Shown here piece by piece: positions 41,203 to 58,095 of a stretch of 64,000 bases of DNA. The DNA is from Clostridia bacterium (GTDB lineage: Bacteria > Bacillota > Clostridia > RGIG6154). Numbering within the stretch: the first letter of the stretch is position 1; each line of letters opens with the position of its first letter. The stretch is from the NCBI GenBank assembly GCA_045589295.1, contig JAZNOU010000012.1, positions 1 through 64,000 of the forward strand, in the 5' to 3' direction. The notes under the pieces were generated by a model. That model made no database searches and was not told the origin of the DNA. It saw only the letters and a list, made by a program, of their open reading frames with translations. Both the position numbers and the translations under genes were made by a program.

Positions 41203-41256
41203 AATTTATCCTTTCTACCGCTTCGCAAGGTTTCCCTCACGAAGCGGCTTTTATAT

Positions 41257-41939: not shown

Positions 41940-42247
41940 GGTGTATAATAAAACATCTGTTTTCGTGAACGGTTTTCCGCACATACCAAATGCCAAAAGT
42001 GAGACGAAAAACGGCGTGTTTTTGTTCAGGTAATTGCCGTCACCCTTTCGCGAACATAGGGGGGTAGTCTTTCGTGAAGAAAATTTTTTCAAAGGTGCTT
42101 GAGGTTTTTGGGTGGCTCATTTAATTATGGAATGATATTTTGATTTGGAATTACGATTATTATGTTCGTTTGCGTTAGAATATTTTTGCGACTCTGACGG
42201 CAATAAACGACAAAAACGGCAAGCAGTTATCAAAAACTACTTGCCGT

Positions 42248-42385
42248 TTATTTGAAATCTTTTAAAATTTCATCGAGTGCCATATCAAGTGCCGTTTTCA
42301 GGCTCTTTTGCATAATGCTGAACAACTCCTACTCTAATACTGATTTTTTCTTTTTCTTCTGGTCTTTCTTTTTATTATATCTCAT
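42248..42385 (-). pseudogene. 45-codon small ORF with an internal TAG
   Basis: MRYNKKKDQKKKKKSVLE*ELFSIMQKSLKTALDMALDEILKDFK; ATGA-coupled to the upstream ORF. Confidence 0.5.
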
Positions 42386-42555
42386 TTTGTTTTTTCCTTT
42401 GTTGTAATTATAATTTCGGTGGAGTCGTCATCATCTTCTGTGTGTTGCTCTATCATTTTTTTATGTAAAGCATTAAGTATTTCTTCTGGTGTGTATCCAT
42501 CCAGATACATTTCTGGATAATATTCCGGGAATTTTTCGTATTTATCTTTTAACAT
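42382..42555 (-). CDS. 57-aa hypothetical protein (not in ORF track)
   Basis: SD GAAAGGAG; MLKDKYEKFPEYYPEMYLDGYTPEEILNALHKKMIEQHTEDDDDSTEIIITTKEKTK. Confidence 0.65.
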   Translation of the reverse strand: MLKDKYEKFPEYYPEMYLDGYTPEEILNALHKKMIEQHTEDDDDSTEIIITTKEKTK

Positions 42556-42582
42556 TGTAATTCTCCTTTCTTATGGATGTGT

Positions 42583-42697
42583 AGGTTTTTGTCGCTTGCG
42601 ACAAAAACCTTAAGAATTGAGTGCTTGCACTCAATTCTTTTAGAGTAGTTTGCGCGCGATAGCGCAATAATTTTGTTTCTTTTGTTAGCAAAAGAAA
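42583..42697. repeat. Cluster of four inverted repeats
   Basis: Two adjacent perfect 13-bp stems with TT loops (42583-42610, 42612-42639), plus 6-bp and 9-bp stems. Confidence 0.85.
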
Positions 42698-42784
42698 ATA
42701 CTATGCCCTAATTTTCTATTATATATGAAATTTGTTGTATATCTATTTTTTTACTTTGTCCAAAAAATTTTTGATTCATAGATG

Positions 42785-43165
42785 CTATGCACTCAAGCCA
42801 AATTCTACTATTTCTGGATATTTTTTTAAGAACCATTTCTTGATTGTTGGATAACGTAAGCCTTGTCTGTGGCATTTGGAAATAGTGCGTAATTCGTTGA
42901 ACTCCTTAATAGTTGCGAGTGCAGTTTTTTCTTCTTCGTGTCTTAAAATATAATCTTCCATATATTCATAAGTTAATCCTTTGTATGATTCTCTGCTTGT
43001 GTTATAATTTATCGAACGTTTTACAACTTTGTATTCCGGATAATCTCGACGGACTTCTTGTAAATGTGCATACTCGGTGCTGCTGGTATTTTCTGATTTT
43101 ATTGCGAAGGTTCTGTCCATCACAATTAATTTTTTTTCGTGGTTTACTTTTAATAAATTTTTCAT
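42785..43165 (-). CDS. Hypothetical protein, paralog of 43199-43600
   Basis: Shared S.EY..L...R.D(Y/F)P, KGLT..YM..YI, IK.WFLKKYP. Confidence 0.75.
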   Translation of the reverse strand: MKNLLKVNHEKKLIVMDRTFAIKSENTSSTEYAHLQEVRRDYPEYKVVKRSINYNTSRESYKGLTYEYMEDYILRHEEEKTALATIKEFNELRTISKCHRQGLRYPTIKKWFLKKYPEIVEFGLSA

Positions 43166-43198
43166 AGTTATGATTCCTTTCTTTATATATTTTCTTTA

Positions 43199-43600
43199 TT
43201 AGGCACTTTTTAAAATCTTTTCTACTTTTCGTGTATATTCATTAAAAATCGGATATTTCTTCAAAAACCAAGCTTTGATTTCACCATAAGTTGCAGTTGC
43301 GGCAAGTTCAGTAATCTCCCATTCTTCGTTACGACCACAAAGAATGCAGAAGTCTTTCATAATCTCTTTTTCTTCGTTGTCATGGTTTTCAATGTATTTT
43401 TTCATATAGTCAATTGTTAAGCCTTTGAATGAATTATTTTTCTTTCCTGAATTTATTGCAACGACCTTGAAATTAGGGAAGTCGGCACGCGCCGCTTTTA
43501 ACATATTGTATTCGTCTGATCCAAAAATACTTGCTTTGTTTGAAAATGATTTTGCTACCTCAATTGTTCTGTTTTTTTCATTGATTTTGATATTGTTCAT
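43199..43600 (-). CDS. Hypothetical protein, paralog of 42785-43165
   Basis: Same shared motifs; SD GAGG. Confidence 0.75.
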   Translation of the reverse strand: MNNIKINEKNRTIEVAKSFSNKASIFGSDEYNMLKAARADFPNFKVVAINSGKKNNSFKGLTIDYMKKYIENHDNEEKEIMKDFCILCGRNEEWEITELAATATYGEIKAWFLKKYPIFNEYTRKVEKILKSA

Positions 43601-43675
43601 AATTATTTACCTCATTTCTAAAATTTTTAAATTAAATTTGAAATTTTTCCTTTCTTTGTTAATAAATTTTTTGTT

Positions 43676-43912
43676 TTAATTATTATTTTCTTGTTGATTC
43701 ATGAATTCAATGTAATCGAATTTGATTTTCTTCTGCATAAGTAAGTATTCTGTTTTGCCTTGCGGCACATCGTTGATTACTTTATGCATTGCGGCAATCC
43801 ATTTGCATTTTTCAATATCTTCTTCTGTTGGATTGCTTAATGATATTTCCTCAATGTCATAAGACATTTTAAGGATTTTATCATAAAGACGTTGGTAATC
43901 TTTTAACTGCAT
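43676..43912 (-). CDS. Hypothetical protein
   Basis: SD AGGAGG; overlaps the upstream ORF in the same operon. Confidence 0.6.
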   Translation of the reverse strand: MQLKDYQRLYDKILKMSYDIEEISLSNPTEEDIEKCKWIAAMHKVINDVPQGKTEYLLMQKKIKFDYIEFMNQQENNN

Positions 43913-44157
43913 ATTCTTATCCTCCTTTCTATTAAAAATATATTGTTTAAGGGAAGCGGCTTTACATCGGAAACTATCACTTCTTTATAGTCTGGGTATT
44001 TCTTTTTATACTGAAAATACATTTTGGTTGAATACATTCCCAGATCGTTGAGATTTTTGACTGTTTCTTCTGGTAATCGTAATTGCTTCTTTCTTAAATC
44101 GGCAGTTACCGGACAAACCAGAAATAATTGATTTGTTTCTTTTTTGTTGTTCTTCAT
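43903..44157 (-). CDS. Hypothetical protein
   Basis: First ORF of the leftward small-gene operon; SD-like GCAGGT. Confidence 0.55.
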   Translation of the reverse strand: MKNNKKETNQLFLVCPVTADLRKKQLRLPEETVKNLNDLGMYSTKMYFQYKKKYPDYKEVIVSDVKPLPLNNIFLIERRIRICS

Positions 44158-44591
44158 TTTAATACCTGCTTTCTAGTATGTTTTTTATTAAGAGGGTTTT
44201 GCTTTCTTCCCCTCTCTGTGATTTTATTATAGCATTTTGACAAAAAGGATGTGTCGTTATAATGGTAATTTTTAAACAATTTTAAAAAAGTTTTTAGAAT
44301 ATTTTTTAAGGGAAGCGGCAAGTACATATTTGCCGAATAGAAAGAAGGTTTTAAAATGATGTTTAAAAGATGTTAAATTGATGTTTGCATCTGGAATAAA
44401 AGTTATTTAAAAGATGAATGAATCTGTATAGAAATATGTTTTGACAGAAGATATAACTTTGTGTTATAATGTGGGTAATGAATCACACTATTGATGGTGA
44501 TAACTATAAATTATTAATTGAAAAAGACTGTAATATCAAGGGTTGAATGTTCCGGCTTCCTTTCATCAAGACCACGAAGTGGGCTTGATAT

Positions 44592-44684
44592 GTTGAAATG
44601 ATGGGTCTCATTGGCGCTGGTAACAACCCAATGGTTGGTATGACTGTTGCAGTTGCAGTTGCTGTAGAAGAGGCTTCAAAATAA
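44592..44684 (+). repeat. attR: displaced 3' end of the GGGtGRT gene
   Basis: Encodes VEMMGLIGAGNNPMVGMTVAVAVAVEEASK*; followed by a terminator-like hairpin at ~44710-44754. Confidence 0.92.
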
Positions 44685-44821
44685 TTTAAGAATTATATTA
44701 TGATGATTTTACGGGGGAAAACCGCATCGACAAAGAAAGCGGTTTCCCCCGTACTCTTTTTTTAAATAATTTTGTAAAAAAAAGGCTGTTTTTTAGACAG
44801 CCTTTTTGATTTAAATTAAAC

Positions 44822-45106
44822 TCACTTATATACAATTATAACTTGTTTATTTAAATCTTGATACCATTCAATAGTATCATCGAAGGTTTCCTTGATATAA
44901 GGAAATTCATATGCAGGAATTCTTGGTAGATTATTACTTCCAATAACCGTAATATGAGCAGGTGCTTCCATATGTCCTGTAAGCATATCCCAGATGGCAT
45001 CGGGATTTTCTCCGCACCATTCGGGAAAGTCAAGCCCCTTGATAATTCTTTGATAAAAGGCTGATAAATCTGTCACATTTGTAAAGTCGATAGTGTAATA
45101 ATTCAT
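44822..45106 (-). CDS. Barstar-family ribonuclease inhibitor, copy 2
   Basis: FPEWCGENPDAIWDMLTG; close paralog of 1993-2277. Confidence 0.9.
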   Translation of the reverse strand: MNYYTIDFTNVTDLSAFYQRIIKGLDFPEWCGENPDAIWDMLTGHMEAPAHITVIGSNNLPRIPAYEFPYIKETFDDTIEWYQDLNKQVIIVYK

Positions 45107-45115
45107 ATTTCCCTC

Positions 45116-45646
45116 CTAAATGATTTCATAAAAAGTGTTATAATGGTCATAGGTTACAAATAAGAGTCCGTCATTTGAATACAAAAGTCTGTGAGTATTT
45201 CTGAACCCACCTATATAATTTATATCCGCTTCATACCACACTCTTCCTGGTTTTTCGGGAAGTTTGTGCTTTCTGTCTCGAAATATGTCTCCGCCCATTG
45301 TTGCCCACGGAAGAACCGATCTTAAATTTCCTTTACGCTTGTCCCAACCGTGTTTTTCCGCATATTTTTTATCCACATAGTTTTTCGGTAATTCTCCATA
45401 CATTTTCAGCGACATATCTGCTCCTGAAAGTCCGTTTATTGTAGCAGTACCGCTATATATAGCGCCAAGAGGTGCTAAAGTGCAGCGACAATTAGGGTGC
45501 AAAGGGGGAGTAAATAAATCGTAAACTGCAAAAATTCTTAAATTAAGTTTAAGACATCTTTCGCATGTGGTAGGTGAAATTTTTACATACCAACAGTTCC
45601 AATTTTCACTTTTGGTTATTGCAGGATTTAGATTGTTATCACCCAA
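45116..45646 (-). CDS. Barnase-family RNase toxin with an N-terminal MuF-type CxxC...PPLHPNCRC motif
   Basis: TCERC...PPLHPNCRC; WYEADINY.GGFRN.HRLLYS.DG...DHY retains the barnase catalytic E, R, R and H. Confidence 0.85.
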   Translation of the reverse strand: MGDNNLNPAITKSENWNCWYVKISPTTCERCLKLNLRIFAVYDLFTPPLHPNCRCTLAPLGAIYSGTATINGLSGADMSLKMYGELPKNYVDKKYAEKHGWDKRKGNLRSVLPWATMGGDIFRDRKHKLPEKPGRVWYEADINYIGGFRNTHRLLYSNDGLLFVTYDHYNTFYEII

Positions 45647-46325
45647 AATAGTATCGTTCCTTTCTTTTTTAAAGTAAATAACGTTATTTTAGGTGTGATT
45701 ATAACATATAGGTAATGTGACATTCAAGGACAAGATTTATTTTATACTAATTACAGGTTTGCGTCAAGTAAAGAAAAAAGATTTGCAAGGTTACATGAAT
45801 TGAGCTATAATGTGTGGCAAATGACACGCAGATGATGTGGACAATGTCGGAGCAAACAGGGCTTTGGCTATGAGAAATACCCACTCGCAAGAGTGGGTAT
45901 TTTGAATGCAGCGTAGTTTGCTGCGACGTGGTGGAGATGAAATGTACTTTCACAGTTTCACTAACAAAACCCGTAAAGCCTATGAAACTCTATGGTGTCG
46001 GACAATTTCTACATACCATTTCACAACAGATTTTGACATCTGTTTCATCCTTCTCTCGACCGCCATTTGGTGTGTGCAAATTTTTTGGATTTTCTGTTGG
46101 TGGAAACCATCGAACACAGAGAGTTTCAAAACTGCATTTTCTTCATCACGAAAGCCATCTCTCTTTTTGCGATGGCTTTGTTTTATTAGTAATGTATATT
46201 AAACCTTTTTAAGATTACACTTAACAAAATAACCTAAAGTAAATCAGTAAATTTGACTTTACATCATGATTTAAATATGATATAATTATAATTAAATCAT
46301 GGAATAAATTAAAAGGAGGATATTT

Positions 46326-46517
46326 ATGAATAAAACTCCATCTCTTTGTGGTCGCCCATCTGGAAGAAAAAAGACTGCTAAAATTGAAGTTGTTATTGAA
46401 CCAGAAATAAAAGAAAAATTTATGAAAATTATTTCAAACGAAGGAAAGACAGCATCGGCTGAAATAGGATGTTGGATTAGAAAATATATCAAAGAAATGA
46501 ATACAGATAATATATGA
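46326..46517 (+). CDS. Small ribbon-helix-helix-like protein, possible R-M controller
   Basis: SD AAGGAGG; GRP...KIEVVIEPEIKEKF...ASAEIGCWIRKYI. Confidence 0.6.
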   Translation: MNKTPSLCGRPSGRKKTAKIEVVIEPEIKEKFMKIISNEGKTASAEIGCWIRKYIKEMNTDNI

Positions 46518-46558
46518 TATTTAAATTATGTATTTTGTGAAAGAAAAGGAGTTTAGAT

Positions 46559-48151
46559 ATGGATAAAAACCGTTTAACAGGTTCCTATTATACATCACAA
46601 AAGATTGCTCAGTATATGGTTAATTGGGCAATAAGAAGTGCAGATGATTTATTTCTGGAGCCTTCATTTGGCGATGGTGTTTTCATAGATGCTGCATTAA
46701 CTAGATATTCGAATTTGGGAAATAATTCACCGAGTATTATAGGCGTTGAATTGCAACCAACTATTTATTCAAAATATATGGATTTATCTGCTGATGGCAT
46801 TGAAGGATACTGCCAAGATTTTCTGACTTTTACTCCAAACTCAGAAATCACGGCGGCTGTTGGAAACCCTCCGTACGTAAGGCTAAGAAATCTCGATGAA
46901 AATTCTAAAACTATTGCAATAGATTGCACAGCAAAAAATAAAGTAAAGATGCTTACTAGTGGCAGTTTATGGATGCCTTTTACAATTCACAGCACTTCAA
47001 TGTTGGCAAATGGTGGTCGACTCGCTTTTGTTTTACCTTTTGAGCTTACCTATGTTAAATATGCACACTCATTGTGGAGTTTTCTAGGGGAGAACTATGG
47101 GGAACTGAAAATCATACGCATACATGAAGACTTCTTCCCTGATGTAGATGTTGAAACAATCATCTTGCTGGCAGATAATAAGGGTGGCAGTACTTCAACA
47201 ATTGATTTTTTAGTATATGAAAATGTTGATAATATGTTTGCTCAAAATACATCTTTGCAATCACAAATTAATATTTCAGATATAATACATGGTAAAAAAC
47301 CATTTGTATTGTCATTATTGAACACAGAACAACGTGCGATGCTAGAAAATATACGTAATAAGCAAATTGTTACGCCTCTTGTTGATGTTTGCAAATTTAA
47401 TATTGGTTATGTGTGCGCTGATAAGGAGTTTTTTCATCCAACTTCAGCAACACAAATAAGTTTTAATATTCCAAAGGACAATATGATTCCTTGCATTAGC
47501 AATGCTAAAGAAATTAATGGTGGCACAAATATTGGTGCAGTTGTGGAAACAGACAAATGCAAGAGCCGTCTATATTTGCCAAAAGAAATAACCAAATCAG
47601 ATAAAAAGTATATTAAACATGGCGTTGATAAAGGCGTTAATTTACGATACAAATGCCAGCAACGTAGTCCTTGGTATATAACCCCGAATGTTGAAATTCC
47701 AGAACTGATACTAACGGTATTTGGTGATGCCCCAAAATTAATTGCCAATAAGGGCAAATATGCAGTATCTAACAGTTTACTTGCTGGGCGCATTGTTTCT
47801 GAGATTACGGCTGAACAAATCATATGTATGTGGTATAATAGTCTTACTTTGTTATCCATTGAGTTGAATATTCATTCATTGGGCGGAGGTGTATTAGTAC
47901 TTATTCCTGGTGAGACGGACAAATTAGAAATAATAAATAAAATTCCTGATAAATATACCGAAAAAGTATTAAGGCAAATTGACGAATGTATTAAAACGCA
48001 AGGTGTTCAAGCTGCATATGAACTAGGGGATACATTAGTGCTTAAAAATATTCTTGGATTTTCAAATGAGCAAATTAATCAAATTAAAGATGCGGTTTCG
48101 TTGTTGCAATTTTGGAGAAAGCCTGAAATACGGCGTAATAAAAACAGGTGA
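46559..48151 (+). CDS. N6-adenine DNA methyltransferase (gamma-type order)
   Basis: GSYYT, FLEPSFGDGVF (motif I), GNPPY (motif IV), C-terminal TRD region. Confidence 0.9.
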   Translation: MDKNRLTGSYYTSQKIAQYMVNWAIRSADDLFLEPSFGDGVFIDAALTRYSNLGNNSPSIIGVELQPTIYSKYMDLSADGIEGYCQDFLTFTPNSEITAAVGNPPYVRLRNLDENSKTIAIDCTAKNKVKMLTSGSLWMPFTIHSTSMLANGGRLAFVLPFELTYVKYAHSLWSFLGENYGELKIIRIHEDFFPDVDVETIILLADNKGGSTSTIDFLVYENVDNMFAQNTSLQSQINISDIIHGKKPFVLSLLNTEQRAMLENIRNKQIVTPLVDVCKFNIGYVCADKEFFHPTSATQISFNIPKDNMIPCISNAKEINGGTNIGAVVETDKCKSRLYLPKEITKSDKKYIKHGVDKGVNLRYKCQQRSPWYITPNVEIPELILTVFGDAPKLIANKGKYAVSNSLLAGRIVSEITAEQIICMWYNSLTLLSIELNIHSLGGGVLVLIPGETDKLEIINKIPDKYTEKVLRQIDECIKTQGVQAAYELGDTLVLKNILGFSNEQINQIKDAVSLLQFWRKPEIRRNKNR

Positions 48152-48170
48152 GTTTACTCACCTGTTTTTA
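48139..48170. terminator. Bidirectional terminator between the convergent R-M genes
   Basis: TAAAAACAGGTGAG-TTTA-CTCACCTGTTTTTA. Confidence 0.75.
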
Positions 48171-48172
48171 TA

Positions 48173-48901
48173 TTATCTTTTTTTAATTGGATTGAAAATA
48201 TTTCGATTATTATGGGTATCAATTAACTTATCAAAGAAATTTTGAATCTGCAGAATTTCTTTTGTTGGCAACAATACTGGTGGATTTTGTGTAAAATCAA
48301 CTTTTAAAAATGCAAAATGTTCATATTTATCGTGTGCATCTCTCCAATCAGAACGCCCAGTAATTTTCTCAAAAAGATTTTCTGCTTTATCAAGCTTTAC
48401 CTCTTCAGTTAAACCTGGCTTAATTGGTGCTGTAGGTAACAGGTACACATAACCGATGGTAGCCATTGGAAAACGGTCATGAAGAGAAATACATTCACCA
48501 ATTATACCTTCATAATAGTTTTCAAGATTTTTCGCAACCGAAGACATTTGACTGCGAACGCCTATAATGATTTGAGGACCATTCGCATAATGTGAAAGCA
48601 CAATATCAGCATCTTTATTCTTGTGAGAACCAAACAATGTAGCTTCTTGCATTATTTGAAGACCATTCGTTGCTATATTCACCCTTGGATAATGTGGTAT
48701 GTCCTTTGAGCGAACCATGTCACTTAAAGGGATGTATTGGATATTCACGCTTGGGTCAATAATGTTTTTTAACTGTTCTATGCAGTATTGATGTAATGGA
48801 AAGATAAAATTAGAGCCACGGACTGAAGCTACAGGGTCGTTTAAATAAATCTCCTTCATATTTGTCAAACAATTTATAAGTTCTGTCATGTTAGCGGGCA
48901 T
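48173..48901 (-). CDS. Putative type II restriction endonuclease
   Basis: Convergent with the MTase; KDADIVL...IGVRSQMSS..KN..N..E..IGE resembles PD-(D/E)xK-type REases. Confidence 0.6.
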   Translation of the reverse strand: MPANMTELINCLTNMKEIYLNDPVASVRGSNFIFPLHQYCIEQLKNIIDPSVNIQYIPLSDMVRSKDIPHYPRVNIATNGLQIMQEATLFGSHKNKDADIVLSHYANGPQIIIGVRSQMSSVAKNLENYYEGIIGECISLHDRFPMATIGYVYLLPTAPIKPGLTEEVKLDKAENLFEKITGRSDWRDAHDKYEHFAFLKVDFTQNPPVLLPTKEILQIQNFFDKLIDTHNNRNIFNPIKKR

Positions 48902-49051
48902 AATAACACCATCCTTTTTTATTAATTATACCACACATTTACAATTTTTTCTACATTTTGTTGAAATATATATGCTAACACGCTGTTACTAATATAGACA
49001 ATTCTATAAATGAGGATGATATTTACAAAAAATGTTTGACCTATTTGTACA

Positions 49052-50605
49052 TTATGCAGATTTTTTATGTTCCTTTTTATGTTCCGAAGATGTTTTGAGT
49101 GTGATTTCAACTCTGTCATGGTGCACAACAATTTCATCAACAAAGCTACGGATTAGCTTTCTGCACACAAGCAGGTCTTTCTTCAAAAGATATTTTTTAA
49201 ATAACTTCTTAACCTTATCTATCTCATCGGAAGTTACGGTATCAGCTTTATAGTTATTATAGTATTCATATTTATTATTAAGAGCTATCTTCTTATTTTC
49301 AAGCTCTTTGAGTTTATCGGTTAATGACTCTAAATTATCAGATTGTATCAATGCATCAGTTAACTTATTTATAGCAATATCAAGCTGTGTGAGTTCATTT
49401 TTTATAGATTTTTTCTTGTTGATTGACAGAACATTTCTCTTTTCAATTTTCTCATTCAGAGCCTTCAATATCCGTCTGTAATTTTTTTCATCAAATATTA
49501 TATCGAGAAGTAAATCAAGAACAAAATCGTTTAAATACTTAATATTTACCGCTTTATTCTTGCATCCGTCTCTGTACGCACCACATCTGTATGTTGCGTA
49601 TTCTGTCTTGTTTCTTCCTGAAAAACTTGTGTTGCCTGTGTAGGCTTTGCCACACTCTCCGCAGACAATCAAGCCGTTAAGCAGATAGTATCTTTTACTG
49701 TGATATGTACCTGCAATTTCTCTATTGGCTTCTTTCTTAGCTAAAAATTTATTATATGTTTCATCATCAATTATCCTTGGCATACCATCAGGAATTCTAA
49801 TTATCTCGCTATCGTCCTTGTATCTGTGAGAGTTGCGAGTTCCATCATTATATTTTGAAGCGGCTCTGTTATAGATGTATACTCCTGTGTATCTCTCTGC
49901 GTTTTCAAGAATTGAGCTAAAGGAATTTTTATTAAATGGTAATTCCTTCTTGGTGGTATATCCATTTTTATTAAGATAATCCGCTATTTGTTTATATGAG
50001 TAATCATTTATATACATCTGAAAAATGAGTTTAACAACTCTGCTTTCTTTATCATTATTAATATACTTTCTATCCTCGCCTACATCGTAACCATATGGTG
50101 GCAATCCACCAACATGCCAACAGTTGTATGCCGCTTCTTTCTTTCCTTTTTGTACCTCTGTTGCGAGATTTCTGCTAAAGTAATCACTCAGAGAAAACAT
50201 CATGTTTCTTGTAAATACACTTGCAGGCGAAGCATCATTAGGCTCTGTAACACTAATTAACTTAACCCCGAGTTTCTCTAACATACATTCATAAGTATGT
50301 GCATTATTCATGTTTCGTGAAAACCTGTCGAACTTGTGTACTACAACAGCATATATGCCTGCCTTTTTTGCTTCTTTCATCATCTGCTGAAAGGCTTCTC
50401 GGTCATCGGTGGTCGCAGATTTTGCCTCGTCAACAAATTCCTTTTCAATTATGTAGCCTTGCTTTTTGCAAAATTCACGGATGGCTCTGCGTTGGGCATC
50501 AATTGACATTGGATTTTGCATGTTAGACGAGTATCTCATATATATGAAAACTCTTTTTAAAAACCTTCTGTCTGTCGGTCTGTTTTTCTTCTTTTTCTTA
50601 GTCAT
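49052..50605 (-). CDS. Large serine recombinase 1
   Basis: YMRYSS, DRFSR, PPYGY, Zn ribbon CGECG...YRC...C, coiled coil. Confidence 0.95.
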   Translation of the reverse strand: MTKKKKKNRPTDRRFLKRVFIYMRYSSNMQNPMSIDAQRRAIREFCKKQGYIIEKEFVDEAKSATTDDREAFQQMMKEAKKAGIYAVVVHKFDRFSRNMNNAHTYECMLEKLGVKLISVTEPNDASPASVFTRNMMFSLSDYFSRNLATEVQKGKKEAAYNCWHVGGLPPYGYDVGEDRKYINNDKESRVVKLIFQMYINDYSYKQIADYLNKNGYTTKKELPFNKNSFSSILENAERYTGVYIYNRAASKYNDGTRNSHRYKDDSEIIRIPDGMPRIIDDETYNKFLAKKEANREIAGTYHSKRYYLLNGLIVCGECGKAYTGNTSFSGRNKTEYATYRCGAYRDGCKNKAVNIKYLNDFVLDLLLDIIFDEKNYRRILKALNEKIEKRNVLSINKKKSIKNELTQLDIAINKLTDALIQSDNLESLTDKLKELENKKIALNNKYEYYNNYKADTVTSDEIDKVKKLFKKYLLKKDLLVCRKLIRSFVDEIVVHHDRVEITLKTSSEHKKEHKKSA

Positions 50606-50780
50606 TTTTTAGTGCCTTCTTTCTGATATGTTTTAATATTCTGTAAATTACGGGAACAGGTGTTTTGAGTTTTAACTTTTCGTCAAAACTGCCTTTAATG
50701 ATTTTGATTTTAACATTTGAATATTCTTCGTTGTATAGACTTTCTCTGTCGATGATATATCTGGCAATCAAGTTTATCAC
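50598..50780 (-). CDS. Small basic hypothetical protein overlapping the LSR1 start
   Basis: SD GGGGGTG; stop overlaps the recombinase start. Confidence 0.55.
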   Translation of the reverse strand: MINLIARYIIDRESLYNEEYSNVKIKIIKGSFDEKLKLKTPVPVIYRILKHIRKKALKND

Positions 50781-50805
50781 CCCCTTTCTTTGCCTTTTAT
50801 TGATA

Positions 50806-51204
50806 CTATTTAATCTTCACAAACGCTGTCACAATTCCATTGATGCTTTTTACCTTTACATTATCAAACGACATAGATGTTCGTTCGCTAAAATCGAGGC
50901 CGAAAATTACTGTTATGTATTTTACCAAAGCGGCATTATATACAATTCCTTTTCCTTTATTTGATACAGAATACTTGTTGCCTGCTTCATCTATGTCCGC
51001 AGCAATTATCAGGAATCCATTACCGACATCTGCTGCAAGCTTTATAAATTCAGGCTTTCCCAATGCTTCAAACAGGCTCTTGGATAAGGTGAGTCGCTTG
51101 CCATTATCACAGAATACCAATGATACGGATTTTGTTGATTTACCCCCTTTCTCGCTTGATACGTTAATAGCTTTTGCGTTAGCTAAAATTTCTTGTGCTT
51201 TCAT
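50806..51204 (-). CDS. Hypothetical beta-rich protein
   Basis: SD AAGGAAG; between the helicase and LSR1; NGKRLTLSKSLFEALG is AbrB-like in pattern. Confidence 0.65.
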   Translation of the reverse strand: MKAQEILANAKAINVSSEKGGKSTKSVSLVFCDNGKRLTLSKSLFEALGKPEFIKLAADVGNGFLIIAADIDEAGNKYSVSNKGKGIVYNAALVKYITVIFGLDFSERTSMSFDNVKVKSINGIVTAFVKIK

Positions 51205-51252
51205 AGCACAACACTTCCTTTCATTTTATATTTTAAATAATAATGATATTAT

Positions 51253-52677
51253 TTAATTAACAAATACATCATTGCCATCGTCTGTGTATGGTAAATTTAA
51301 TTTGCAATAGGTTGTGCAACCTAAAGGTCTGTATTTCTTTAAAGAAATATTCATCGTTCGTCTGTTTCCATTAGACTTTTTTGTAATCATACCCTGTCCT
51401 GTCTTTTTTATAAAAATCAGATTGAACTCCATCCAAAATTTAGTGGTTGAAATATGAGCATATTTAATATGATTATTAGCTTTACACCAATTTATAAATG
51501 CCTGATAAACTGCACTCCTTGTTTCCCATATGGATTTATCTTCCGACACCTTGAAATAAATACACTCATTCCAAAATGCTTCAAATGGATTGGACATAGT
51601 TATATACTGATTTTTCAGTTTCTCTATCTTTTCCGAGTCAGTAAATCTGAAATCATTGGAATTAAGCCTGTTAAAACCTTTTATCGCCAAATTAAAAATT
51701 CCTGGCAACTCTTTCTTTAACTTTTCTTCCAGATGAATATCAGCTGTTCCGTCTTTAATAGAGAATTGTTTTTCAAAAGGAACGATGATAATTCGGCGGA
51801 AAAATCCGTCAGAAATATCTTTAAACTGCGGTAGTGTATTGGTGCTGAATATCAGCTTACAGAATGGTTTGAATGAAAAAACATCTTTACCTTTAAACTC
51901 TGCCGATATAGCATCACCGCCTGTGATAGCCTTTATATATTGTGTATCAGTAACCTGTCCGTTGTAGCTTTCGTTTTCAGTAGATATATTAACTAATTTA
52001 TCCAATAAAACCGATTTATTAAATCTCTTTGCAAAATCCCTTATTGGTACAGTAGAACAATTATCTTCGCCGACTAATGCCATAATCAAATTGCACAGTA
52101 CAGATTTTCCGTTTGCTCCCGTTCCGAAAAACAAGAAGAAGCATTGTGCTGAATTATTCCTTGTCATTATATATCCCATCAACTCCTGAATGACTTTCAT
52201 TATCTCTCTGTCATCATCAAATATGCTTTTTAAAAATTTGATAAATTGAGGACATTTTGCCTTTTTATCATATTTAATCGGGAGCTGTACAGTGCAATAA
52301 TATTCAGGGCTATGCGGAATAAGCTTGTTAGTCTCCAAATCATACATTCCATTTTTCAGGCAAATCAAGTTTTGGTATTTGTTGAATTCACCGCCATAAA
52401 ATGCAATTCTTTTCAGTGCAGTAAAATAGTACTCCTCTGCTCTTTTGTTAAATGAATTCGGATATGATGTGGAAAGAATCAGTTTCGCCATAATCGCTTT
52501 TAAGCGTTCTTCTGAAATCGGCTTATATGCTCCGTGACGATACATATAATATTTACCGTTATCTGCATAAATAATATTGTACTTCCTATGTACATACAAT
52601 GCGAATAAATTACTGTCAAGATAAACCCCATCATCACCTGTTTCTCTGAAGCCCATTTCTTGTTCATTGTTCTTCAT
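51253..52677 (-). CDS. D5/P4-family SF3 helicase (no primase domain evident)
   Basis: LKNGMYDL, CPQFIKFL, GTGANGKS, KAITGGD, FSTN.LP, FFRRIIIVPF. Confidence 0.9.
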   Translation of the reverse strand: MKNNEQEMGFRETGDDGVYLDSNLFALYVHRKYNIIYADNGKYYMYRHGAYKPISEERLKAIMAKLILSTSYPNSFNKRAEEYYFTALKRIAFYGGEFNKYQNLICLKNGMYDLETNKLIPHSPEYYCTVQLPIKYDKKAKCPQFIKFLKSIFDDDREIMKVIQELMGYIMTRNNSAQCFFLFFGTGANGKSVLCNLIMALVGEDNCSTVPIRDFAKRFNKSVLLDKLVNISTENESYNGQVTDTQYIKAITGGDAISAEFKGKDVFSFKPFCKLIFSTNTLPQFKDISDGFFRRIIIVPFEKQFSIKDGTADIHLEEKLKKELPGIFNLAIKGFNRLNSNDFRFTDSEKIEKLKNQYITMSNPFEAFWNECIYFKVSEDKSIWETRSAVYQAFINWCKANNHIKYAHISTTKFWMEFNLIFIKKTGQGMITKKSNGNRRTMNISLKKYRPLGCTTYCKLNLPYTDDGNDVFVN

Positions 52678-52792
52678 AATAACCTCCTAAAATAATATTT
52701 TGAATTCGAATTCTGAAGTTATTATATCAAATATTATTTTAAAAAACCAATTGGAATATTCTTATATTATCAGAGAATATAAATATTTTTTG

Positions 52793-52833
52793 CAAGAAAT
52801 ATTCTTGAAAAAATTCTCAGCAAGTGATATAAT
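52793..52833 (+). promoter_or_regulatory. SigA-type promoter with an overlapping palindrome (candidate operator)
   Basis: TTGAAA(52805)-17-TATAAT(52828) with TG; CAAGAA-ATA-TTCTTG overlaps the -35. Confidence 0.55.
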
Positions 52834-52895
52834 AGTAAAGGGTATTGAAAAAAACTATACTTCTGTTTGAGCATAAAAAAGTTGAGGTGAATTAA

Positions 52896-53438
52896 ATGGC
52901 GTATATGAGACGCAAGAAAAAAATGAGTCCCGAACTAGAAAAAGACTATTATCAGCAGTTGATGTCCTTGGTTAATAAAAATCTTCCGGGGCTCACACAA
53001 AATCAGCTATTAATAGAGATTAATAAGTATGCAAGAGATAAAGGATATCAAATAACCCAACCTGAATTATCAAAAGATTTATCAAAGATTAATATAGTTA
53101 AAGTAAAGGAAACTATAAAAAGCATTGTTAATGGTGAAGAAATACTAGAAACACAAAATGTATTCAGATACAAAGAACCCATCCCCACAGCAACTCTTCC
53201 GCCGATATTTAGCGAATATATAAGAGGCAAATCGACCTTATTTAAAAAACCTAAGTGTTTAAAAATACCAGTAAAAGAAGGAACTGAACAAATAGTGTGT
53301 AAGGAACTTTGTGAACATTACGGGCATGCAAATTTAATATATATTCCAGCATACAAAGCAGTTTGTATCATTGTTCTGAATTCTGAAAGTGCTATAACGA
53401 AGATAGAAACCATACAAGAACAAATTAACAAATTATAG
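52896..53438 (+). CDS. Divergent ArgR/AhrC-like regulator
   Basis: TQNQLL...GYQITQPELSKDLSKINIVKV matches the ArgR wHTH (TQ.EL...G..VTQATVSRD..EL.LVKV). Confidence 0.65.
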   Translation: MAYMRRKKKMSPELEKDYYQQLMSLVNKNLPGLTQNQLLIEINKYARDKGYQITQPELSKDLSKINIVKVKETIKSIVNGEEILETQNVFRYKEPIPTATLPPIFSEYIRGKSTLFKKPKCLKIPVKEGTEQIVCKELCEHYGHANLIYIPAYKAVCIIVLNSESAITKIETIQEQINKL

Positions 53439-53541
53439 ATTTTTGAAATTAGTAATCATTCAAATATATATCATATTATTGAAAGCCAATAGGAAATCAA
53501 ATTCCTATTGGCTTTTAATATTTTATGAAAGGATTGTTAAA

Positions 53542-55116
53542 ATGAATGAAAAGCAAGGATTAAAGGTTGTTTTATATGCTCGTTTTTCATCTGACCTACA
53601 ACGCTCCGAGAGCATTGATGCACAGGTCAGGGCGATGAAGAAATATTGCGAGCAAAACCACATGCAGATTATTGACACCTATGTGGACGAGGCAAAGTCT
53701 GCCACCACAGACAAGCGACCTTCGTTTCAAAGAATGATTGAAGACAGCAAAAAGCACATCTTTGAGGGCATTGTCGTTCACAAGCTTGACCGCTTTGCAA
53801 GAAACCGCTATGATTCAGCAATGTACAAGAGAACTCTAAGGCTCAACGGCGTTCGGGTTTTCAGCGTTCTTGAAAATCTTGATGACTCCCCTGAGTCAAT
53901 TATGCTTGAATCACTGCTTGAAGGTATGAATGAATACTATTCCAAAAACCTTGCAAGAGAGGTTATGAAAGGATTAAAGGAAAATGCTCTCCAATGCAAA
54001 CATACAGGTGGAAGTCCACCTTTGGGTTACTATGTTGATGAAAATAAGCATCTTGCCATTGATGAAAAGGAAGCTGAAGCTGTGAGGATAATTTTTGATA
54101 TGTTTTCCAACGGACATTCCTATGATGAAATAATATCAACTCTTAACCAAAGAAAGTTTTACACCAAGAAGGGTAATATGTTTGGAAGAAACTCTATTCA
54201 CAGCATACTGACGAATGAAAAATATGTCGGTACTTATGTGTTTAACAAAAGCTCTTCTAAAGACATGTATAACAGAAGAAATTCTCACAAGTACAAAGAT
54301 GATAATCTGATTATTAAAGTACCTGACGGTTGCCCTCAGCTTGTAGATAGAGAAACCTTTGAAAAAGTTCAGCAAAGATTGCTTGAAAACAAGCATCAGG
54401 GAGGAATGTACAACGCAAAGCACAGATACCTTTTAAGCGGATTTTTATATTGTGGTTACTGCGGTAAAAGATTAACTGGCAACCGAAGATACAGCGGAAG
54501 AAACAAGTCACTTTCTGTTACTTACCGATGTCTAACACACAAAGACAGTTGTATTAGCAAGGAATATAACAGATACTTTTTAGAGGATTTTGTATTTAAT
54601 CAAATTAAAGAACATTTTGGGTATAAAGCAAGGCTTGCATCTATGTATAACAAGGTTAACCGATATGCAGAAAAAAGCCTTAAAACTCTGCAAACTGATT
54701 TAGATGCACTTACCAACAGACTTATATCTGTTAATGAAGCAATTTTAAATATTACTATGGCTATTGAGAAAGGAGTATGCACAGATGATATACTCGAAAG
54801 ATTGGAAGCACTTAAACACGAAAAAGCGACTATCCAAACGGAAATGTCAAAAAAGTCACAGATACAAAAGATTAGATATACTGATGCTGATGTAAGCAAA
54901 ACTTTAAATGAGTGCAAAGAGCTCATGAAACAACCTACACATCCTAAAAACAGATGGTTTCTTAAAAAGGTGATTTCAAGGATTGTTTTATATCGTGAAG
55001 AAATTCTTATAGTCCTCAATACAGGTCTATCTGTAAATGATGATTTTAATACTGAAATAAGAGCATCAAGAAAAGAAATATACGATTACGGAAGGAGCAT
55101 AAAAAATGCTAGTTGA
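53542..55116 (+). CDS. Large serine recombinase 2
   Basis: YARFSS, DRFARN, PPLGY, CGYCG...YRC...C; ATG 53542 after GAAAGGA. Confidence 0.95.
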   Translation: MNEKQGLKVVLYARFSSDLQRSESIDAQVRAMKKYCEQNHMQIIDTYVDEAKSATTDKRPSFQRMIEDSKKHIFEGIVVHKLDRFARNRYDSAMYKRTLRLNGVRVFSVLENLDDSPESIMLESLLEGMNEYYSKNLAREVMKGLKENALQCKHTGGSPPLGYYVDENKHLAIDEKEAEAVRIIFDMFSNGHSYDEIISTLNQRKFYTKKGNMFGRNSIHSILTNEKYVGTYVFNKSSSKDMYNRRNSHKYKDDNLIIKVPDGCPQLVDRETFEKVQQRLLENKHQGGMYNAKHRYLLSGFLYCGYCGKRLTGNRRYSGRNKSLSVTYRCLTHKDSCISKEYNRYFLEDFVFNQIKEHFGYKARLASMYNKVNRYAEKSLKTLQTDLDALTNRLISVNEAILNITMAIEKGVCTDDILERLEALKHEKATIQTEMSKKSQIQKIRYTDADVSKTLNECKELMKQPTHPKNRWFLKKVISRIVLYREEILIVLNTGLSVNDDFNTEIRASRKEIYDYGRSIKNAS

Positions 55117-55639
55117 AAAGAATATTTTAAAAACAGATTTATCATACAGTGATGATAAATCAAGAAGATACTTACTTAACATTGAATGGGATAAAACGAA
55201 AAAGAAGGCTTGTATTATCATGCTGTCGGCAGGGCGAGCCAATGGCTTGTTTTTTGACCGAACAACAAACAATGTGATTGAAAATCTGGTTGAGACAGAC
55301 TACGGAAGTGTGGATGTGCTCAACCTTTTTTCTTGCCTTGATGAGAAGGTCGAGGACGTTGGCGATTCTGAGAATTTGCAGATGATTGAACAATCAGCCA
55401 AAAATGCGGACATTATCATTTTTGCTGCGGGCACGGGCAAAAAAGCTGACAAGAGAGTACAGACAAGACAGAAAGATGTGCTTGCAACACTTAAAAAGTA
55501 CGATAAAAAGCTATTCTGTATCGCTGATGATGACGGAAAGAAATTCTATCACCCTTTATGTCCTAAGGTGAAAAAGTGGAATTTAGTTAAATTTGATGTC
55601 GAAGAACTTACAAAGAAGGGATACGATTATGAGTATTAA
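55106..55639 (+). CDS. DUF1643-like protein
   Basis: SDDKSRRYLL...W...IIML...D.T...NLFS...IIFAAG...HPL pattern. Confidence 0.75.
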   Translation: MLVEKNILKTDLSYSDDKSRRYLLNIEWDKTKKKACIIMLSAGRANGLFFDRTTNNVIENLVETDYGSVDVLNLFSCLDEKVEDVGDSENLQMIEQSAKNADIIIFAAGTGKKADKRVQTRQKDVLATLKKYDKKLFCIADDDGKKFYHPLCPKVKKWNLVKFDVEELTKKGYDYEY

Positions 55640-55931
55640 ATTAGGAACTAAAAAAGAGCTTTACAAGGTAAATCACTTACCCAAAAGAGTTAGAGAATAT
55701 ATTGAGGGTGATGTTGCTGCTTTAGATTGCTTTTATGGTGATGACAGGAATATAGATGCTGATTTTGGCGGTTTTGTTGTAGTATGCGAAGCGGATGAAG
55801 TGCTTGACATTGAAAATTTTGTAGAAGATTTGGAACAAGCGGAGTACATACAAGACATTTGTCCCTATCGAAAAGCACTTTATATTGCGGGAACTGAGCG
55901 AAATATCATTATCTACAGAAAGAGGAACTAA
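55629..55931 (+). CDS. Hypothetical protein
   Basis: Overlaps the DUF1643 stop; LDCFYGDDRNIDADFGGFVVV. Confidence 0.65.
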   Translation: MSIKLGTKKELYKVNHLPKRVREYIEGDVAALDCFYGDDRNIDADFGGFVVVCEADEVLDIENFVEDLEQAEYIQDICPYRKALYIAGTERNIIIYRKRN

Positions 55932-56006
55932 ATGGACAAACGCAAGGACAATGGGATTTTACTTGGGAAATCAGATTTGGTAAAATATTCCTCAGAGGTG
56001 ATTTTA

Positions 56007-56264
56007 ATGGGAGGTGAAACACAAAAAGAGTTATTAAACTCTGTGTATAAAGACATAGCCGAAGCTTTTGGAATAGATGTTGCCATACAGTTTTACCAAA
56101 TGTATAAGGGTATGCAGATGACTTTTCCAACAAGATTGTTTAATCCTGAATATGTGAAAAAGCAGATACCTGTTGAGTATGACGGAAAGAATATCAAACA
56201 ATTGGCTAAAAAATATGGTTATAGTGAAAAAACCGTAAGAAGAATGATAAAGGAAAGCGTGTAA
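56007..56264 (+). CDS. Mor/C-family transcription activator-like protein
   Basis: YKDIAEAFG...YKGMQMTFP...YDGKNIKQLAKKYGYSEKTVRRMI; upstream ATG 55932 also possible. Confidence 0.8.
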   Translation: MGGETQKELLNSVYKDIAEAFGIDVAIQFYQMYKGMQMTFPTRLFNPEYVKKQIPVEYDGKNIKQLAKKYGYSEKTVRRMIKESV

Positions 56265-56277
56265 AGGAGAACAGTAT

Positions 56278-57333
56278 ATGCAATATTTGTTAATTTCCAT
56301 AATATTAATCTTGATTGCACAACGAAAAAAAGGAACAAATTTAAGTAAATTTTTAAACATTGTTGCTACAATAATTTTATGTGTATTTATATCTACTAAT
56401 ACTAAAGGCTGTATGAAATTAGATAACACTAATATAAATTCATCACATGTAGATACCTCAAATATTAAAGTGGAATTGAATGGTTACAATAAAACAAGTG
56501 TTCCAATAGGTGTTGGAGAATACTCGTTTGAAAAAGATAAATATAGTGATGGAATGTATTTTTGTCTTGATGTAAGTAAAAATTCAAATTCTCCTTGGTG
56601 TGGTGCTATTACTGCTGAAATAGAGTTTTTTGATGAACAGGACAATTCTATCGGCAAGGATATTGCCAAAAGCGGTAGTTTGCGTATGGATATGGGTGAT
56701 AGGTTGAAATTCGGTTTTTCCACTAATGACGGAAAAATTGTTTACAATCAAAAGGAAATTGTCAAGATTGTTTTAAGCTCGATTTATGAAGAAAATGATT
56801 TGCATCGTTTCTTGAAATCAAACTTCATCAACAAAAAACATGAGCTTCAAAAATGTATTGATGAAAAAAATTATGATATGTTTTATTCTAAACTTGAAAG
56901 CGTGAGGAAAGAATATCCCAGAGAGGAATTCCCTGATGAAAATATGGTTTTAGATGATATGGAAAACAGTGTTAGTGGAGTGAAAAGCCAAGAAAAACAA
57001 ACAGAAAACCAAACTCAAAAGACAATTCAGCAAACTCAGCAAAACACTAATGGTTATATGGATTGTTGGATATATGACATACAGGTTGATGATAGCTTGC
57101 TATCAAGGGATTTGGGCTTTGGTACAGGTTATAATATAATTTGCTTTTTCACTACATATGATTCACAAGCAACTAAAACAGCAAATGATTTTGAAGGTGT
57201 CTTTTTTACAACCGAAGAAAAAGGGAAACTTGCTAATATTGGAACGGGGTGGCATAAAGTTAACCTTAAAAGAATTGGCGACAGAAAAATTAATGTTTTA
57301 GGAATGGACGCATATGTATTTATACATCAGTAA
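56278..57333 (+). CDS. Hypothetical membrane-anchored protein (cargo)
   Basis: 351-aa ORF, SD AAGGAG, two N-terminal hydrophobic segments. Confidence 0.7.
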   Translation: MQYLLISIILILIAQRKKGTNLSKFLNIVATIILCVFISTNTKGCMKLDNTNINSSHVDTSNIKVELNGYNKTSVPIGVGEYSFEKDKYSDGMYFCLDVSKNSNSPWCGAITAEIEFFDEQDNSIGKDIAKSGSLRMDMGDRLKFGFSTNDGKIVYNQKEIVKIVLSSIYEENDLHRFLKSNFINKKHELQKCIDEKNYDMFYSKLESVRKEYPREEFPDENMVLDDMENSVSGVKSQEKQTENQTQKTIQQTQQNTNGYMDCWIYDIQVDDSLLSRDLGFGTGYNIICFFTTYDSQATKTANDFEGVFFTTEEKGKLANIGTGWHKVNLKRIGDRKINVLGMDAYVFIHQ

Positions 57334-57399
57334 AGTGCAAACGGCTATGAGGGAAATCAAACCTCATAGCCTTATTTTCTATGCAAAGGAGTTGATAAA

Positions 57400-57477
57400 A
57401 TGCAATATACATTATTGGGATTCGGTTTAACACTTACAGTATTATTAGGTATTGAAGCATTAAGAGAAAGGGCGTGA
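57400..57477 (+). CDS. 25-aa hydrophobic peptide (not in ORF track)
   Basis: SD AAAGGAG; MQYTLLGFGLTLTVLLGIEALRERA. Confidence 0.5.
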   Translation: MQYTLLGFGLTLTVLLGIEALRERA

Positions 57478-57481
57478 TAGG

Positions 57482-57595
57482 ATGATGTTTTTAGTCGGTG
57501 CAAGCACAACTGCATTTCTGACAGCCTTCGGCGAGGGTGCAATGCTTGCCGCATCTGTTTATCTTGCAAGCAGAGGGGTCAGAAGAAGACGATGA
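57482..57595 (+). CDS. 37-aa hydrophobic peptide with basic tail (not in ORF track)
   Basis: MMFLVGASTTAFLTAFGEGAMLAASVYLASRGVRRRR; starts 4 nt after the previous stop. Confidence 0.5.
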   Translation: MMFLVGASTTAFLTAFGEGAMLAASVYLASRGVRRRR

Positions 57596-57746
57596 GGGCA
57601 GGTCGAGGACAGCTTTTGGGGCACTTCCAAAACCTCAAATGCCAGTACCGAACTGCCTTTGGGCAAGAGGGCAAGTCAGTGGTCGCAAAGTCTCCACAAA
57701 AAGAAAATCACATACACGGACTTAGCTCCGTGTATGTGAAAGTCGA

Positions 57747-58095
57747 TGGTGGAGATGAGGAGAATTGAACTCCTGTCCGAAAATTTGTCCTTCGATACGT
57801 CTACAGGTTTAGTTTACGGATTTGTTTTCTTTCCCTCGGGGCACCGTAAACGAAGCCCTTTGGGACATAGCTTTTTATACCTGACTTGCTAAAAGCATCA
57901 CAAGTTCACGTTCACTGCGAAACTTTTCGCCTTGGGCTCTGCCGCAGTATCAGAGAACAAGACGGCAGCCGTTAATTAGGCAGCGTAAGCTAAATTTTTG
58001 TTAGCGTTTAAAATTTAATTGCACATTTTTAAGATGCTGTGCGCATCTACCTGCAATACCGAGCTCTTAATCCCCGTCGAAACCATTGCACCCCC
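57747..58095 (-). ncRNA. ssrA: tmRNA, tag peptide ANKNLAYAA
   Basis: 5' GGGGGTG...TTCGAC; 3' GTTCAATTC...CATCTCCACCA; tag GCT AAC AAA AAT TTA GCT TAC GCT GCC TAA; next to smpB. Confidence 0.95.

Follow-up and report, generated by a model that had tools for sequence, protein, structure and literature searches.

Why would one small island carry two complete large serine recombinases (LSRs)? The question is raised by the 64,000-nt stretch of DNA analysed here (the window; positions 1 to 64,000 of contig JAZNOU010000012.1 of the Clostridia bacterium assembly GCA_045589295.1), in which an island at the tmRNA gene ssrA encodes the 517-aa LSR1 (49052-50605, minus strand) and the 524-aa LSR2 (53542-55116, plus strand). 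The two proteins are 36% identical over 497 aa; each is built of resolvase, recombinase and zinc-ribbon domains and retains the catalytic serine motif as well as four zinc cysteines, so that their description as full-length paralogs in an earlier note on this DNA holds. Our reading, to which we give a probability of roughly 0.58, is that the window carries a single 11.8-kb ssrA island resembling the staphylococcal cassette chromosome (SCC), in which LSR1 and the product of a small gene, orf60, are predicted to form a switchable excisionase and the tail-bearing LSR2 is likely an integrase free of any recombination directionality factor (RDF).

The island comprises 11,818 bp between two direct 12-nt copies of the ssrA 3' end, and the outer edges of this repeat, 45929 and 57758, are the bounds that the earlier note gave; the open reading frames (ORFs) that it named are present as well. 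The target gene is intact (57747-58095, minus strand; ARAGORN). On its side, the attachment (att) site (57736-57758, minus strand) combines the 12-nt core at 57747-57758 with an element arm that has the motif ACTTTCAC at 57736-57743. At the far end (45929-45961, minus strand) a 12-nt copy of the ssrA 3' end (45929-45940) is joined to an element arm with A.TTTCAC at 45954-45961, and this arm is also present in four relatives, L028, L029, L030 and L060. The repeat is the longest word common to the ssrA end region and 44001-49100. A contig of run X10 provides the empty site against which the boundaries were to be mapped, joining 45929 to 57748 precisely and omitting 11,818 nt. A 10.7-kb contig of run X3 carries the same core (49052-56256, including an ArgR-like gene) and the far-end att site (matching 45929-45961) with different cargo. 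Nine loci were scanned with profiles of the two element arms, and no internal att site came up in any of them. One att pair, no internal site, both LSRs in all seven elements of the family and a precise empty site together do not fit two unrelated insertions, and neither half was found alone: the window island is one element. Its GC content is 33.8%, compared with 35.5% for the genome. In three genus relatives the core is absent and different sequence follows ssrA; one relative, G001 (L002/L021), has the ssrA end repeated ~175 nt downstream, flanked by repetitive post-tRNA sequence. A degenerate att-like stretch with a TTCCACCA core (46099-46130, minus strand; 3.5 bits on the att profile) lies ~170 nt inside the far end of the window island.

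The family comprises seven elements. A search with LSR2 of 185,579 species genomes returned 21 loci, four of them family members (L028-L031); a DUF1643 search of viral contigs led to a fifth relative, L060, and an orf132 profile to a sixth, L076. Two LSRs, orf132, the DUF1643 protein and a helicase occur together in all seven. Both ends are mapped in the window island, L028, L029 and L030 (11,818, 11,281, 11,686 and 11,439 bp); only the far end is visible in L060 and L076 and only the ssrA end in L031, whose far end was looked for and not found. Five viral scans gave one family member, L060, and nine unrelated phage-type LSR loci; L060 lies in an IMG/VR contig yet has no viral genes. An LSR1 scan of metagenomes returned 10 loci, none of this family, and plasmids gave no orf132 match and LSR2 matches of at most 45% identity. 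The orf132 profile matched none of 17 other genomes of the order (a single-protein scan), none of 400 other genomes of the phylum and three of 398 genomes of the class: G172, which holds the contig of L029, G095, which holds L076, and, weakly and with no element, G151. Further scans with the profile brought no new member.

In a quick tree of 29 LSRs, with a long branch for L076 LSR1 and an L031 LSR1 fragment that is 42%-filled, the seven LSR1s and the seven LSR2s each form one clade (SH-aLRT 92), and the two clades are weakly sisters (87). The modules are mosaic: L060 is 93% identical to the window island in orf132, 57% in LSR1 and 70% in LSR2, and its LSR2 groups with those of L029 and L030, which have a colinear layout. 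In contigs of runs X7 and X8 both LSRs are ~95% identical to those of the window, and in the X8 LSR1 contig the places expected for orf132 and the helicase are taken by other sequence. Where synonymous sites are unsaturated, dN/dS of the core genes is 0.05-0.31 (LSR1 0.10-0.13, LSR2 0.05-0.09, orf60 0.10-0.30), pointing to purifying selection that includes orf60. LSR relatives also lie beside tRNA or tmRNA genes in L033, L034, L045, L047 (tRNA-Ser), L050 (tRNA-Leu), L048 (tRNA-Trp), L036 (tRNA-Pro) and L032 and L038 (ssrA), which suggests a clade of serine integrases that target tRNA ends. The host assembly (G000) has further LSR islands at C10:53474-57686 and 38969-43124, and the LSR of L027 (G000:C18:1734-5180) is 39% identical to LSR2, with a Mor homologue ~10 kb away. 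In the contigs of runs X3 and X4, which come from one study, there is a 1-nt gap inside LSR1 at window position 49714.

When the element arms are joined they are symmetric about the TC with which the 12-nt repeat is edged on its 5' side, and A.TTTCAC lies 14-21 bp out on each arm. Across five junctions 36 of 50 positions match, the top score of all centres and 10-nt windows, and 6 of 2000 column shuffles reached this value. Serine integrases are described as reading attP with the zinc domain at positions 16-24, counted with the central base (PMC3783163, accessible text), and the position of A.TTTCAC fits such a zinc-domain motif. The symmetry thus points to a crossover at the TC dinucleotide, 45939-45940 at the far end, and a crossover at this 5' edge would suit the far repeat, which follows host-specific ssrA variants.

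The case for a division of labour between the recombinases comes from orf60 and from the LSR C termini. The orf60 gene (60 aa; 50598-50780, minus strand) overlaps the LSR1 start by 8 nt and lies directly upstream of LSR1 in five of seven elements, the close members. Its protein family is small, with 14 clusters at E<=0.001 among 1.84 billion representatives, 13 of them of 56-74 aa; there was no Pfam match and no PDB sequence match, and no fused form among longer proteins, which is weak evidence. The predicted complex of LSR1 with orf60 scored 0.68, compared with 0.00 for the best of three controls; 116 of 157 solved complexes attain the mark used for such scores, as do 2 of 215 mismatched pairs, figures that are approximate for the alignments used. 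Contact agreement between runs was at least 64% and the partner pLDDT at least 67. In the model the interface consists of LSR1 residues 351-386, 454-490 and 497-508, which form the zinc-domain core and the base of the coiled coil, and it flanks the coiled coil; residues 5-12 of orf60 pair with the LSR1 strand 497-503. Verified RDFs are predicted at this same junction of DBD2 and the coiled coil, mostly adding a beta strand, and six of nine RDF predictions worked (PMC12286644, accessible text). An integrase-RDF complex (SPbeta) has been solved, so likeness to it may have helped the score, and neither chain here has a sequence match to that complex. The earlier note named the 60-aa ORF as a protein to include in att assays; a role for it as a directionality factor has gained support from this prediction, and orf60 is the predicted RDF of LSR1.

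LSR2 differs at the C terminus. LSR1 of the window ends 11 aa past the last conserved K/N-T-S/G motif and LSR2 has a conserved 29-aa tail; in the family the stretch past this motif is 7-11 aa in the five close LSR1s and 24-29 aa in all seven LSR2s. In models of SCCmec LSRs, additional strands at the C terminus could obstruct the site of RDF binding (PMC12286644); whether an extension of this kind foretells that an RDF is missing is a question that the accessible text of that paper does not settle. A likeness by eye between the orf60 N terminus and the LSR2 tail found no support as homology (HMM E>1, hhalign probability 7.6%). Because the predicted interface is at the RDF site and the LSR2 tails are long, we propose LSR1 with orf60 as the excision pair and LSR2 as the integrase. 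A more specific form of this proposal, in which direction control is split between paralogs that act on one att pair, LSR2 bearing its tail and needing no RDF and the tail-less LSR1 receiving its 60-aa RDF in trans, is put forward tentatively, as possible rather than probable. Once the island has been excised, its helicase would load at an origin within the element and, with host primase and polymerase, would either copy the circle or restore a second strand. We propose a passive transfer, by transduction or DNA uptake, because the island encodes no relaxase or packaging gene.

Several observations weigh against this reading. Recombination, circle and replication are all predicted rather than observed, and no circular joint is among the joints listed for contigs of eight runs. 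The short side of the empty-site joint is only 31 nt at 88% likeness, and another organism is a possible source. In attB the motif would be expected at a 5-bp-shifted position, and the ssrA arms do not have it there; another centre scores 9/10 in the window alone, and the five elements behind the attP symmetry are kin. The family is rare in the sampled genomes, and its five close members are not independent. In the distant members L031 and L076 orf60 was not detected, and LSR1 is in three pieces in L031; LSR1 is therefore possibly dispensable. Three of nine RDF predictions failed (PMC12286644), and the notion that the LSR2 tail blocks the site comes from sequence and from that same source.

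The family has two layouts, and these track the helicase type in all seven elements. In the window, L028 and L060 (3/7) the halves are divergent and the helicase is of the D5 type; in L029, L030, L031 and L076 (4/7) the order is colinear from the ssrA side (LSR2 half, helicase, orf132, LSR1) and the helicase is of the DUF927/Cch-HTH (HTH_56) type. A divergent arrangement thus describes the window correctly and does not extend to the class, as had been supposed. In L031 and L076 the DUF1643 gene precedes LSR2. On a circle, the colinear order would read helicase-LSR1-(cargo, attP)-LSR2-DUF1643, which would be the SCC core order split by att. The deepest LSR2s are colinear, so the divergent layout of the window probably arose later, by inversion of the LSR2 half, and goes together with the D5-type helicase. 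SCC pattern 1 has Cch with DUF927 and pattern 2 has Cch2 with D5_N/primase_Cterm (PMC7581432, accessible text), and the exchange of Cch2/D5 (3/7) for Cch/DUF927 (4/7) seen here matches patterns 2 and 1. The window helicase (51253-52677, minus strand) is a superfamily 3 (SF3), D5/P4-type, Cch2-like protein with D5_N and DUF5906 (Pfam), a Walker A motif at 185-192 and a TIGR01613 match above cut-off. PHROG 864 matched it only at profile positions 212-616 of 1064, the middle of a primase-helicase profile, so that it lacks a primase domain, as had been recognised; no polymerase family was found among the element ORFs and the 218-nt gap between the helicase start and the adjoining slot gene holds no ORF. 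A D5-type helicase on C10 of the host assembly is 31% identical. Five iteron-like TG(C/T)CC repeats (57596-57673, minus strand) are a candidate origin that may be tied to the D5-type helicase; L028 has six within 130 nt, L029 and L030 have at most two, and the L060 contig ends short of this region.

These layouts bear on the other explanations that can be offered for two recombinases. The main rival is that the LSRs cooperate as CcrA and CcrB do, both acting on the same sites (for example, element arms versus ssrA arms), with orf60 donating a strand that completes the LSR1 zinc domain and not switching direction. Purifying selection on both LSRs, the single att pair and a motif common to the element arms and missing from the ssrA arms would suit such cooperation, as would the placement of the orf60 strand where LSR2 has its extra tail and the reported need of SCC for CcrA with CcrB in integration and excision (PMC3146451, accessible text). 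The LSR genes, however, are never adjacent or co-transcribed when integrated (7/7), LSR1 is broken in L031, the wider clade includes ssrA islands with a single LSR (L032 and L038), and orf60 has no significant sequence likeness to the LSR2 tail; we hold cooperation to be improbable, if well short of negligible. Another account makes the island a composite of two once-independent elements, helicase-orf132-orf60-LSR1 and LSR2-DUF1643-orf100-Mor, in which one LSR is a passenger. It draws on halves that are opposed in three elements and share an orientation in four, on the mosaic identities and on tandem accretion at this att, which is real in L060 and L029. Yet no att lies between the halves, neither half occurs by itself among 21+10+9+1 LSR/DUF1643 loci and orf132 matches, and the halves co-occur even where LSR2s are only ~50% identical, with both LSRs conserved, which makes a composite very unlikely.

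A satellite resembling phage-inducible chromosomal islands (PICIs), dependent on a helper as the earlier note supposed, would have the ArgR-like protein repress the divergent helicase operon until a helper phage arrives and Mor activate late functions. The divergent members do have a putative DNA-binding gene and an integrase that point in the direction opposite to the helicase, the L060 slot gene resembles clusters in which 12-22% of members have HTH_3, and the size of 11-12 kb is suitable. Against this, there is no terminase, capsid or primase gene, the slot gene is unconserved (unrelated 245-274-aa ORFs in L029 and L030) and four of seven elements are colinear; Mor stands ahead of variable membrane cargo and not of packaging genes, and the one member of seven from IMG/VR has no viral genes. 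With neither a packaging gene nor evidence of a helper, this account has lost ground and is also very unlikely. We give least credence to an invertase role for one LSR, by which inversion of the LSR2 half would turn the helicase operon on and off. Two orientations exist and LSR2 ancestry is independent of them, but active inversion of the LSR2 half was rejected, since neither junction has inverted repeats or a site resembling att, none of the joints listed for contigs of the eight runs changes strand, and the link of orientation to helicase in 7/7 is as expected from one old event followed by module exchange. The division of excision and integration between LSR1 with orf60 and LSR2 is accordingly the reading that we retain.

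The ArgR-like winged-helix protein (52896-53438, plus strand; PF01316) occupies a variable slot and is not part of the core. Its PF01316 match is 27.7 bits against a cut-off of 27 and spans only 32 aa; TIGR01529 gives 22.9 bits against 130 and Arg_repressor_C does not match. Its C-terminal half is modelled at pLDDT <50, the top fold match is ArgR (E 0.013), and the host carries its own ArgR. In L028 and L060 the slot holds a different 166-170-aa ORF with a weak helix-turn-helix (HTH) lead, the L060 gene resembling clusters with 12-22% HTH_3 members. The 245-274-aa ORFs of L029 and L030 are unrelated, and other sequence stands there in X7 and X10, where LSR2 is ~96% identical. As a conserved switch, the role first suggested for it, the ArgR-like gene was rejected, having two homologues and unrelated genes in its place in 4/4 other elements and in X7 and X10. 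The three divergent members may still each have a regulator in this slot. The genes of the right operon drawn earlier (ArgR-like-LSR2-DUF1643-hypothetical-Mor) are all present, and membership of the ArgR-like gene is doubtful: 103 nt separate it from LSR2, with a 19-pair terminator-like hairpin between them, so that the two are not plainly one operon. This 44-bp inverted repeat (53477-53520, plus strand), directly before LSR2, occurs in 5/5 close elements with a T run and a spacer of 10-11 nt, L060 showing one compensatory pair; its role may be that of a terminator or of an operator. A sigma-70 scan (65 sites, 55+-7 in shuffles) was uninformative.

The remaining genes form a conserved core with two swappable cargo slots that hold defence and membrane genes. 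In the left half, orf132 (132 aa; 50806-51204, minus strand) is a conserved core protein, putatively DNA-binding, with a weak MraZ/AbrB-like fold match to 1n0e (Z 5.1, rmsd 2.9, 88 aligned) and unnamed structure-atlas matches. LSR2 is followed on the plus strand by the DUF1643 protein (55106-55639; PF07799 E 3e-25; in 7/7 elements), also an SCC core gene, by orf100 (100 aa, 55629-55931; conserved in 5/7 elements, no Pfam match) and by a Mor-family HTH activator (55932-56264; PF08765 E 4e-11, PHROG late activator, 5/7 elements) that stands ahead of the second cargo slot. That slot has membrane or SPFH genes across the family and, in the window, a 351-aa membrane-anchored protein (56278-57333, plus strand) that matched no family in Pfam, NCBIfam, PHROG or PADLOC; its content is different in L028-L030, L060 and runs X7 and X10. 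Two small hydrophobic peptides of 25 and 37 aa (57400-57595, plus strand) end the LSR2 module, with the same DNA in L028, L029 and L030.

The slot after LSR1 carries type II restriction-modification (R-M) genes in the window, the Pycsar genes PycTM+PycC in L029, a TIR protein in L030, DUF4062 in L028 and type I R-M-like genes in L031. The window genes encode a 63-aa ribbon-helix-helix (RHH) protein, likely the R-M controller (46326-46517, plus strand; PF19839 E 0.0016, below cut-off), an N6-adenine methyltransferase (46559-48151, plus strand; Pfam Eco57I/N6_Mtase, PADLOC MTase_II E 3e-96) and, convergent with it, the restriction endonuclease (48173-48901, minus strand; PADLOC REase_II E 3e-14). 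R-M cargo had been named together with the lack of relaxase, type IV secretion system (T4SS) and capsid genes, and no such families were found among the 13 element ORFs in Pfam, NCBIfam and PHROG scans; nor did any element ORF match a terminase, packaging or capsid-interference gene in PHROG or Pfam. In the host assembly, which is 97% complete, a single model each found neither a TraG-D_C coupling protein nor TerL_ATPase. At L060, a 695-bp cassette (2806-3512) that has no recombinase gene is bounded by two att cores with both element arms and carries an MNT/HEPN-like pair resembling type VII toxin-antitoxin systems. It stands in tandem behind the main element, an integron-like accretion at ssrA, and tandem accretion is found at L029 too.

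How does the island compare with described systems? SCC/SCCmec and SbCIccrDE likewise have one or two LSRs, a Cch or Cch2 helicase, DUF1643 and R-M cargo, and SCC shares tandem att-bounded and recombinase-less cassettes and a GA/TC central dinucleotide (probable here; GA in PMC10581047, accessible text), so that the likeness of the core to SCC drawn in the earlier note, in helicase, LSRs and DUF1643, extends to the Cch/Cch2 swap. The helicase lies upstream of the recombinase as in SCC; the Cch1 model scored 216 bits against a cut-off of 700, which indicates the same family and not the same allotype. The targets there, however, are rlmH/rimL and not ssrA, the staphylococcal SCC inserting at the 3' end of rlmH (orfX), and the LSRs here fall well below the NCBIfam cut-offs for CcrB (155 and 157 bits; 900), CcrA (98 and 74; 700) and CcrC (57 and 74; 900). 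From the SCC trio SAUGI-DUF960-DUF1643 only DUF1643 was found in the window island, where CcPol-MP, LP1413, SAUGI and DUF960 were unmatched, and the LSR genes are separated with no LSR operon. The island has orf132, orf60, orf100 and Mor in addition, and thus a predicted RDF, whereas SCC is reported to be without one (PMC12286644, accessible text). By target, Ccr cut-offs and SAUGI/DUF960 it is SCC-like but outside SCC membership.

An SCC-like ccrDE island outside rlmH is on record (PMC10581047), and so are SCC-like Pol-SSB/helicase islands at ssrA in Clostridioides difficile, Clostridium perfringens and Turicibacter sanguinis (PMC10061031; both in accessible text). The latter share the ssrA target, a COG3378 (D5-type) helicase, an LSR, conflict-system cargo and SCC-like DUFs, and the window island fits the SCC-like class of that paper (a helicase with downstream LSR(s) at rlmH or ssrA and target-end repeats of ~12 bp). 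They differ, in a comparison of text and not of gene maps, in having one LSR and a PolA-SSB primase, the window family having two LSRs and no primase gene. The Dehalococcoides islands (PMC3146451, accessible text) are also ssrA-specific, with a CcrB-like DsiB, a second serine recombinase and recombinase-less tandem accretion. Their DsiA, however, is a 200-aa catalytic-only protein and the second recombinase here is full length; their module is dsiB-dsiA-RecF-ParB-Mom and no ParB or Mom match was found in the window; and they insert in the T-loop with a 20-bp repeat, compared with 12 bp here. PICIs and SaPIs are similar in size, in the self-loading SF3 or DUF927 helicase family and, for three of seven elements, in divergent layout. 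The PICI integrase is a tyrosine recombinase, and the window family has serine recombinases, no primase, terminase or capsid-interference gene and no conserved repressor pair. Integrative mobilizable elements differ by their relaxase, a family absent from the 13 element ORFs. Known LSR-RDF pairs (SPbeta; PMC12286644 and bioRxiv 10.1101/2025.01.03.631226, accessible text) share a small integrase-adjacent protein predicted to bind at DBD2 and the coiled coil and to add a strand, but the element that encodes orf60 has a further LSR, one with a tail. The suggestion of an undescribed class goes too far: we found no description of the twin-LSR, primase-less ssrA family in searches of the open full-text literature (subscription papers lay outside their scope), but SCC-like helicase-LSR islands at ssrA (PMC10061031) and ssrA islands with two serine recombinases (PMC3146451) are known.

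Further features lie beyond the island. Just outside the island, 44822-45646 encodes a barnase-like RNase with a Phage_Mu_F-like N-terminal part and barstar; a second copy at 1986-2830 is apparently frameshifted, and G001 has two copies. A separate 13.7-kb tyrosine-integrase island (30844-44685) lies between 94-nt direct repeats that copy the 3' end of the GGGtGRT gene and encodes the integrase (31074-32009), a WYL/WCX protein, an HTH protein, a 1849-aa CUB/LRR/Ig surface protein and a resolvase. A 54-nt repeat at tRNA-Leu (21227-21586) is flanked by repetitive post-tRNA sequence, and 62530-63099 encodes a lipoprotein with seven 63-nt repeats. In the genus relative G002, a different island after ssrA (L023, 940-4475) has a Mor homologue (46%) before surface-protein cargo and no LSR in the 5 kb covered.

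The control of integration and excision in SCCmec-type elements, and the reason why many carry two LSRs, are stated to be poorly understood. The ssrA island of these non-pathogenic gut Clostridia pairs an extension-bearing LSR with an extension-less LSR and its coupled candidate RDF on the same att sites, and it shows that the Cch/Cch2 helicase swap also occurs beyond staphylococci, here where no primase gene is present. If the more specific form of our proposal is right, LSR1 and LSR2 would be a matched pair in which the RDF and the C-terminal extension are alternative occupants of the DBD2-coiled-coil junction, which would account for the two recombinases of SCC-type elements, and the same recombinases would also gather recombinase-less, att-bounded defence cassettes at ssrA. 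The ssrA 3' end is a site that nearly all bacteria have, and the island further offers two candidate integrases for it together with a mapped attP, a combination that would be useful for genome engineering in gut Clostridia.

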